The position numbers and the translations under genes are program-made. Shown here piece after piece: positions 23,416 to 24,225 of a stretch of 64,000 bases of DNA. The DNA is from a virus (taxonomy: Duplodnaviria > Caudoviricetes), in the IMG/VR virus record IMGVR_UViG_3300018475_000104, positions 32,001 through 96,000 of that record; one strand, 5' to 3'. The notes beneath the pieces were generated by a model that was not told where the DNA came from, searched no databases, and worked only from the letters and a program-made list of their open reading frames with translations. Position 1 is the first letter of the stretch; every line of letters starts with the position of its first letter.

Positions 23416-23449
23416 AGCCGTGTAGTTTAATGGTAAAACGCCGGTCTCT

Positions 23450-24138
23450 AATTAAAAATTGGACACCAAGAAGGGAAACCGCTTGTGTGAATCGTGTCAA
23501 ATTCGGTAAAACTCTTTAGGAGAATACAATGGCAACAAAAATTTCACTTTTAAGTGACGAAGAATTTTAGAAAATAATTTATGAATCTTATTCCTATGCT
23601 GAATGTTGTAGAAAGATTGGATATAGTGATAAAGGAAGTCATGGCACAGATGCGATAAAGAAAAGATGTCAAGAACTTAACTTGTCTACTAGTCATTTTT
23701 CTAAGACCAAGGCAGCAAATAAAAGTAGCACAAAATATTCTTTAGATGATATATTGATTGAAAATTCTAATTATAAAAACATATCAAGATTAAAAACTCG
23801 ACTAATCAATGAAAACAAACTTGAATATAAATGTGCTATATGTGGTAATACTGGAGAATGGAATAATAATCCCCTAGTTCTTCAATTAGACCATATTAAT
23901 GGAAAACACAACGACCATCGTTTAGAAAATCTAAGATTCTTATGTCCTAACTGTCATTCTCAAACAGAAACATATTCTGGAAAAAATAAAAATAAAGACA
24001 ATACCGAGCTAAATCAGTAAAAAACTGTAAATGTGTAGAGACTAAACGGCACGAACCTAAACCCAATTTGGGCATGGTTAAGATATAGTCCAGACTACAA
24101 CACAAATAATTGTGGCCATGGTGACATGGAGTAGTATG
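23450..24138 (+). ncRNA. group I self-splicing intron in the tRNA anticodon (689 nt)
   Basis: P1 with U.G at the splice site (TCT|AATT-aaa-AATT-GGA); P3 CGTGTC 23493/GGCACG 24048; P4 TTCGGTA 23502/TACCGAG 24002; P7 GACTA 24040/TAGTC 24086 within GTAGAGACTA and AAGATATAGTCC; GNRA-capped P2 and P9; terminal G 24138. Confidence 0.92.
23529..24020 (+). CDS. intron-encoded HNH homing endonuclease, in-frame TAG at codon 14 (23568)
   Basis: TAGGAG SD, MATKISLLSDEEF*KIIYES... in frame with CAICG...LQLDHINGKHNDHRLENLRFLCPNCH. Confidence 0.87.
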
Positions 24139-24225
24139 AAAACCGTAATATCCTTCTGACGGAGGTTATCTGGGTTCGAATCCCAGCACGGCCGCCAATC
24201 AAATATTTTACTGGAGGACAGTCCA

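Follow-up and report, generated by a model that had tools for sequence, protein, structure and literature searches.

Can a homing endonuclease depend for its synthesis on the very tRNA that its intron interrupts? The question is raised by a 64,000-nucleotide stretch of phage DNA (the window; positions 32001-96000 of a contig of 109,534 bp), in which an intron within an amber-suppressor tRNA gene carries a nuclease reading frame with an early in-frame TAG. A sequence-only reading of the window had proposed that the nuclease needs this tRNA and is made only once the spliced suppressor has accumulated. With moderate confidence, we favour a closely related reading, namely that a suppressor gene has been split by a mobile intron whose nuclease is made after suppression has set in, trailing both splicing and the switch of the genetic code.

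A TAG-reading genome and its split suppressor gene

The genome reads TAG as sense and, judging from sequence comparison, most likely as Gln. TAG is used as a sense codon in about 45% of the genes, with a TAG share of 25-40% in the genes that use it, and many minus-strand ORFs are open only if TAG is read, among them three long ones (2737, 1521 and 1128 aa, with 44, 19 and 14 TAGs, respectively); the replication block contains zero TAG. At the two TAG sites of TerL (110 and 495), Q is found in 115/120 and 120/120 homologues, counts that are partly circular because the protein database holds code-15 calls of this genome (P0121, P0127). In distant standard-code phages, TAG sites are occupied by K/R/E/D and never by an aromatic residue. 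A Ser, Leu or Tyr identity, considered from the long variable arm and G73 of the tRNA, was dropped because the TAG-aligned residues are polar, charged or Q. A crAss-like phage was assumed first and then rejected, as TerL is nearest to those of Geobacillus virus E3, Enterococcus phage H1 and phAss-1, the last being a TAG-recoded gut phage with three suppressor tRNA genes (PMC10607447).

The suppressor gene itself escapes the usual scans. ARAGORN with default settings reports no tRNA at this locus of the window, and an Rfam scan of the window at gathering score gives neither an intron nor a tRNA match. In its intron mode, ARAGORN detects a split tRNA whose variable arm is long, and joining the exons gives a 93-nt product called as a tRNA with anticodon CTA, that is, an amber-suppressor cloverleaf. 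The intron interrupts the anticodon itself (CU|A, after U35), and the earlier description of the tRNA had to be amended in this respect and in the length of its variable arm. ARAGORN's own splice choice (His, atg) was dropped because the U.G and terminal-G rule and the intron-less alleles favour CU|A. On further contigs, from phages and metagenomes, intron-less homologues carry ...CCGGTCTCT|AAAACCGT... across the site, and the exon junction CTCT|AAAACCGT is exactly that of four of them (L024, L038, L041, L043), giving a predicted ligated-RNA junction of CUCU|AAAACCGU. The features of the gene and its intron are as follows.

23416-24197 (+): split tRNA(CUA) gene, 93 nt once the exons are joined
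23416-23449 (+): 5' exon of tRNA(CUA), A1 to U35, comprising acceptor, D arm, anticodon stem and the loop to C34-U35; from ARAGORN in intron mode and the sequence common to intron-less homologues
23450-24138 (+): group I intron, 689 nt; from splice-site rules, helices and the intron-less junction
23447-52/23458-63 (+): P1, UCUAAU/AUUGGA, with the U35.G pair at the 5' splice site (UCU|AAU)
23463-70/23482-88 (+): P2
23494-98/24048-52 (+): P3, read by eye
23502-07/24003-08 (+): P4, read by eye
23513-17/23994-98 (+): P5, read by eye
24015-17/24025-27 (+): P6, read by eye
24040-44/24086-90 (+): P7, from compensatory changes
24054-57/24076-79 (+): P8, from compensatory changes
24094-98/24131-35 (+): P9, from compensatory changes
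24116-29 (+): GNRA hairpin
24138 (+): terminal G of the intron, followed by the 3' splice site
24139-24197 (+): 3' exon of tRNA(CUA), A36-A37-A38, anticodon stem, variable arm, T arm, acceptor, G73 and encoded CCA

The intron has the splice-site features of group I introns (U.G in P1, a terminal G and the correct ligated exon). When the 3' halves of eight related introns were folded with RNAalifold, P7, P8 and P9 were supported, 10 of the 19 pairs showing compensatory changes, and P3 covaries between the window (GUGUC/GGCAC), the tRNA-Leu intron of the same genome (GCUGG/CCAGC) and a related tRNA(UCA) intron (GUGAU/AUCAC, L008). The Rfam model Intron_gpI (RF00028), run in E-value mode, finds the core at 23872-24115 (22.1 bits, E 0.0036), and its threshold of 50 is not reached because an ORF of about 480 nt in L5 breaks the model. 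An ORF-less intron of the same family occurs at the same CU|A site in two other loci (L033 and L044); because L5 is a tiny loop in these relatives, the nuclease gene invaded a pre-existing intron. At 173 nt (L033:3233-3405; L044), the ORF-less form is at the small end for group I introns. Together, the splice sites, helices and intron-less alleles identify a mobile group I intron that splits the suppressor tRNA gene and is predicted to be self-splicing. No promoter or terminator signal above shuffles was seen near the locus.

Several features of the tRNA merit description in their own right. The variable arm has 23 nt (24147-24169) and forms a stem with a 7-nt loop, UUCUGAC, which resembles the anticodon loop of tRNA-Gln(CUG). 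All CUA-type relatives keep YUCUG in this loop, and UCA-type relatives have CUCCAAA there, the anticodon loop of Trp (CCA); from these sequences, the loop may act as a decoy anticodon for the synthetase. The acceptor stem has an A1.C72 mismatch (23416/24193) together with G73 and the encoded CCA, and the same mismatch is found in L024 and L033, with A1-U72 in L041.

The HNH reading frame and its codon-14 TAG

The reading frame within the intron and the signals around it are the following.

23518-23522 (+): Shine-Dalgarno sequence AGGAG, 6 nt 5' of the ATG and directly after the 5' strand of P5; from the sequence
23529-24020 (+): HNH homing-endonuclease ORF, 163 codons and TAA, in L5; phrog_10822, Pfam HNH
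23568-23570 (+): in-frame TAG at codon 14, in the helix aa 10-19 of the N-terminal domain; from sequence, alignment and AF2 model
23682-23684 (+): TTG at aa 52, the first in-frame ATG/GTG/TTG after the TAG, with no Shine-Dalgarno sequence

The ORF starts with ATG 23529, is preceded by TAGGAG at 23517-22 and ends with TAA at 24018-20. The sequence-only reading had placed it between the two P4 strands, behind a TAGGAG Shine-Dalgarno sequence and with its end overlapping the 3' P4 strand, and this geometry is borne out (P4 at 23502-07/24003-08, the motif six bases 5' of the ATG). More exactly, the ORF lies in L5, between the P5 strands, and its last nine codons cover P5', P4' and the 5' strand of P6. 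No significant local hairpin was found over the Shine-Dalgarno sequence.

The encoded protein matches phrog_10822 (HNH endonuclease, E 1e-52) over residues 5-159, and because this homology extends across the TAG, the ORF is a real gene and not a chance one. The HNH domain is also recognized by Pfam (PF01844, 26.5 bits versus a cut-off of 21.4). In an alignment of 36 homologues, C102, C105, D121, H122, N134, C139, C142 and H143 are invariant or nearly so, residues 1-13 and the block up to residue 50 are conserved, and S22, R28, G31, G36 and K44 of the N-terminal domain are nearly invariant. The AF2 model (pLDDT 81.5) predicts the N-terminal domain (aa 4-50) confidently, as four helices, and a floppy linker joins it to the HNH core (aa 72-150). 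The N-terminal helical domain is probably DNA-binding; a Foldseek search of the PDB brought up HNH and HTH structures, all of them weak matches. Family members are full length, and relatives at 94-100% identity retain the whole 163-aa frame.

The TAG at codon 14 is where the earlier reading had it, well ahead of the HNH core, and it is the sole in-frame TAG of the ORF. The feature to which Borges et al. drew attention, a phage's recoded stop in frame within an intron nuclease ORF, is therefore present here. The earlier reading had also suggested comparing homologues for Gln at this position. The closest set does have Q, and the aligned codon is CAA in L005 and L006; further out, the column is variable (K/I/R/S/L/T/V). 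Full-length HNH, whose residues 1-13 and N-terminal domain (aa 4-50) are conserved, requires TAG read-through, and we take dependence on suppression to follow, as a physical fact, from the sequence as it stands. This much of the proposed need for suppressor holds; further suppressor genes may lie beyond the contig. Another claim, that the element is inert in standard-code genomes, has little bearing, since any gene into which the intron would home is already a suppressor gene.

The contig carries five ordinary tRNAs (ARAGORN, Rfam), none of them CUA, and these programs found no second tRNA(CUA) on its 109.5 kb. At the contig start, a tRNA-Phe(GAA) is severed (L049:1-60, minus strand), so the assembly is incomplete, and relatives with identical proteins reach 122-125 kb. 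Given this missing portion and the three suppressor genes of phAss-1, self-dependence holds for the assembled sequence but not for certain.

Under the reading we favour, ribosomes that start at ATG 23529 in a cell without suppressor would stop after 13 residues and never reach P5', P4' and P6. Once mature tRNA(CUA) is present, read-through would allow the full nuclease to be made, and ribosomes would then traverse the core sequence. Because tRNA(CUA) on this contig comes only from splicing of the ORF's own intron, nuclease synthesis would trail splicing. Keeping ribosomes off the ribozyme core early would help splicing, as for I-TevI, and the nuclease could, in co-infected cells, home the intron into alleles that lack it. 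Termination after 13 residues in the absence of suppressor follows from the sequence itself; the late timing, the feedback on splicing and any adaptive value are what we infer from this arrangement, and the influence of ribosomes in the core on splicing is proposed by analogy with td / I-TevI.

Related loci and the origin of the early stop

A pattern scan with the 3' exon uncovered a family of homologous long-arm tRNAs; neither the exact 3' exon nor an HNH N-terminal pattern matched any viral contig, and a scan of genome contigs gave only one distant match, in Paceibacterota. Almost no genes are shared between these loci and the present genome, according to tblastn of all its TAG-bearing ORFs against the loci of related tRNAs and nucleases. 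In TGA-recoded phages, a tRNA(UCA) is split at U|CA by a related intron, which comes in three forms: without an ORF (207 nt in L008), with a PDDEXK_5 (I-Ssp6803I-type) ORF that has TGA at codon 4 (L009, L023, L025 and others), and with a different HNH ORF in which TGA occupies codon 5 as well as the position of the invariant Trp (L012, L013, L028). These ORFs start in L1, 15-24 nt past the splice site, read without a frame break across the IGS and the greater part of the core, and stop within P7 in L009 and L012 (L009:3005-3508, minus strand, and L012:1454-1972, where they traverse the IGS and P2-P6 and run into P7). The two unrelated nucleases of L009 and L012 have the same C-terminal ~45 residues because the ribozyme core encodes them. 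Genes beside the tRNA(UCA) introns use TGA at only about one third of Trp codons. The intron site shifts by one base with the anticodon, from CU|A after position 35 (23449/23450) to U|CA after position 34 (L008:6553/6554), and at both sites the exon ends in the U needed by P1.

Two further tRNA genes of this genome, both on the minus strand, house nucleases. Outside the window, a 714-nt group I intron, a close relative of the window intron, interrupts a tRNA-Leu(UAA) at the classical U|AA site (L049:3367-4166) and carries in L6 an HNH ORF with five Gln codons, none of them TAG; this tRNA gene adjoins an Rfam skipping-rope RNA (RF02924, 60.4 bits; L049:3290-3359, minus strand). A tRNA-Lys-like gene (L049:571-1135) has a 487-nt anticodon-loop insert that is nearly filled by a PDDEXK_5 ORF (Pfam E 4.5e-27; seven Gln codons, none of them TAG) and leaves little room for a ribozyme.

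Homologues of the window HNH also occur as free-standing genes within tRNA arrays (L001-L006), a setting that suggests tRNA genes as the targets of this lineage. At L003:2908-3520, an intron-less 74-nt tRNA(CTA) is followed within ~20 nt by such a homologue, with an in-frame TAG near codon 41. At L001:2712-3261, a tRNA(UCA) with an ORF-less 207-nt intron is followed, directly after its CCA end, by a 5'-truncated homologue of the window HNH (aa 72-157) with TGA at the invariant Trp; from its sequence and position, this fragment looks like the remnant of a free-standing nuclease beside its target.

For the window ORF taken alone, drift is a sufficient explanation of the early stop. The ORF has 1 TAG, 3 CAA and 1 CAG, and with the TAG share of the TAG-using genes, one TAG among five Gln-type codons is the expected number; chance alone would place it first among them about 1 time in 5, and because codon 14 falls in a variable column, a neutral CAG-to-TAG change fits. 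Pure drift can be taken further, to an absence of any practical self-dependence, if suppressor comes from intron-free tRNA(CUA) copies located where the assembly is missing. The contig does break off within a tRNA array, and phAss-1 relatives have 2-3 suppressor genes; however, there is no second suppressor in 109.5 kb, and early stops recur in this setting among TGA-recoded phages, so we regard this explanation as rather unlikely.

The TGA parallels, an internal contrast and an indirect sign of conservation all argue for more than drift. The internal contrast is with the two other tRNA-embedded nuclease ORFs of this genome (0 TAG among 5 and 7 Gln). Conservation is suggested by code-11 calls of diverged copies, whose shortened form implies an upstream stop and suggests persistence of the TAG: P0043 (MBQ4060579.1; 81% identity) is called with 122 aa from Met42, and P0022 (74% identity) begins at residue 16, just past codon 14-15. 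Among residues 1-41 of P0126, a cluster-mate of P0043, Gln occurs at position 14 alone (Q14). Against more than drift, free-standing HNH homologues in recoded phages have recoded stops elsewhere as well (~codon 41 in L003, Trp111 in L001).

These observations invite the stronger proposal of a selected gate with feedback, in which the TAG would bar ribosomes before suppressor is available, and later read-through would unfold P5/P4/P6, throttle splicing, set the suppressor level and restrict homing to late infection. Three unrelated intron ORFs in suppressor tRNA genes have the cognate stop within codons 4-14, and because the ORF of TGA-type introns spans the IGS and the core up to P7, translation there must clash with folding. 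The TAG is probably kept in relatives at 74-81% identity, the nuclease ORFs in non-suppressor tRNA genes of the same genome are TAG-free, and the I-TevI precedent likewise favours a selected gate. However, the sample is small and the window ORF is not significant. Recoded stops turn up at other positions in the free-standing HNH homologues of recoded phages, so that recoding of nuclease genes is general, and the 5' strand of P5 is already covered by the initiating ribosome, whatever happens at the TAG. On this evidence, we consider such a gate unlikely. The same tentative standing applies to its generalization, a recurrent, selected and self-referential circuit in which any nuclease family in suppressor-tRNA introns would gain a cognate stop within its first few codons, ribosomes would be kept off the ribozyme until spliced suppressor appears, and nuclease synthesis with disruption of splicing would then provide homeostatic control of suppressor level and of the genetic-code switch.

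Two remaining explanations are highly improbable. A decaying gene, with the TAG as a true stop and an intron that persists by splicing alone while nuclease is no longer made, would have company in the ORF-less or truncated versions elsewhere (L033, the L001 fragment and the broken PDDEXK ORFs of L010 and L014), but the ORF is otherwise intact, its catalytic and zinc residues are all present, the full 163-aa frame is kept at 94-100% identity, and TAG is sense throughout the genome. Initiation at TTG 23682 would open a 112-aa ORF in the standard code and retain the HNH core (aa 72-150), possibly active without suppressor, but no Shine-Dalgarno sequence precedes this codon, and the product would lack aa 1-51, that is, the conserved N-terminal domain, in a family of full-length members. 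Returning to a nuclease that trails suppression, we attribute the origin of its dependence mostly to life in a recoded genome, where CAG to TAG is tolerated, with selection possibly reinforcing it.

Relation to known systems

The 780-bp cassette joins three selfish or regulatory layers, namely a code switch, a ribozyme and a homing nuclease. Because standard tools (default ARAGORN, Rfam at gathering score) miss this split tRNA, similar genes may explain some of the 'recoded phages without a suppressor tRNA' in the literature. Whether recoded stops serve as translational timers is a question that this compact locus makes testable, through a single codon that can be TAG or CAG. A selected gate would be a new way for an intron nuclease to spare its host gene; if the stop arose by drift, the locus would show cleanly how mobile elements adapt to a carrier's code. 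The arrangement gains interest because it recurs with different nuclease families and different stop codons, and precedent, drift-compatible statistics and the incomplete contig lessen that interest.

Anticodon-loop introns include those of tRNA-Leu UAA, at 34/35, and of tRNA-fMet, with the PD-(D/E)XK nuclease I-Ssp6803I. Group I introns are known in the anticodon loops of bacterial and plastid tRNAs (PMC3984707), and the window intron resembles them in the kind of host gene and in its site; this genome also has a U|AA intron in tRNA-Leu(UAA), and PDDEXK_5 nucleases in related tRNA(UCA) introns parallel the I-Ssp6803I case. Unlike in the bacterial and plastid examples, the interrupted tRNA here suppresses a stop codon and has a long variable arm, the intron lies at 35/36, and the ORF is recoded. 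The tRNA introns of Lak phages have been described only as enigmatic. SegB of T4 is a free-standing GIY-YIG homing endonuclease in a phage tRNA gene cluster (PMC2330249); homologues of the window HNH are likewise free-standing in tRNA arrays, whereas the window HNH is intron-borne.

Translation within intron cores has a precedent in T4 td / I-TevI, where ribosomes on the intron core impair splicing and translation is delayed, 'better late than early' (Gibb & Edgell 2010, as reviewed in PMC3073962). As in td, the window ORF extends into core helices. I-TevI is a GIY-YIG enzyme encoded in P6 and restrained by a late promoter and an RBS-sequestering hairpin, whereas the present enzyme is an HNH nuclease in L5, with the in-frame recoded stop as the only candidate brake.

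The closest parallel is found in the TGA-recoded Agate phages, where a group I intron endonuclease prefers TGA and in-frame stops were proposed to withhold the nuclease until late (Borges et al., bioRxiv 10.1101/2021.08.26.457843). The idea of delay by a recoded stop is thus already published, and we found no report in the literature of an intron in the suppressor tRNA itself or of a nuclease-tRNA loop; the self-referential placement is a twist and no new principle. In both cases, a homing endonuclease ORF in an intron of a recoded phage carries the recoded stop. The Agate intron interrupts an early protein gene, and its nuclease ORF contains TGA; in the present case the stop is TAG and the intron sits in the suppressor tRNA gene, so that the nuclease would depend on the product of its own intron's splicing.
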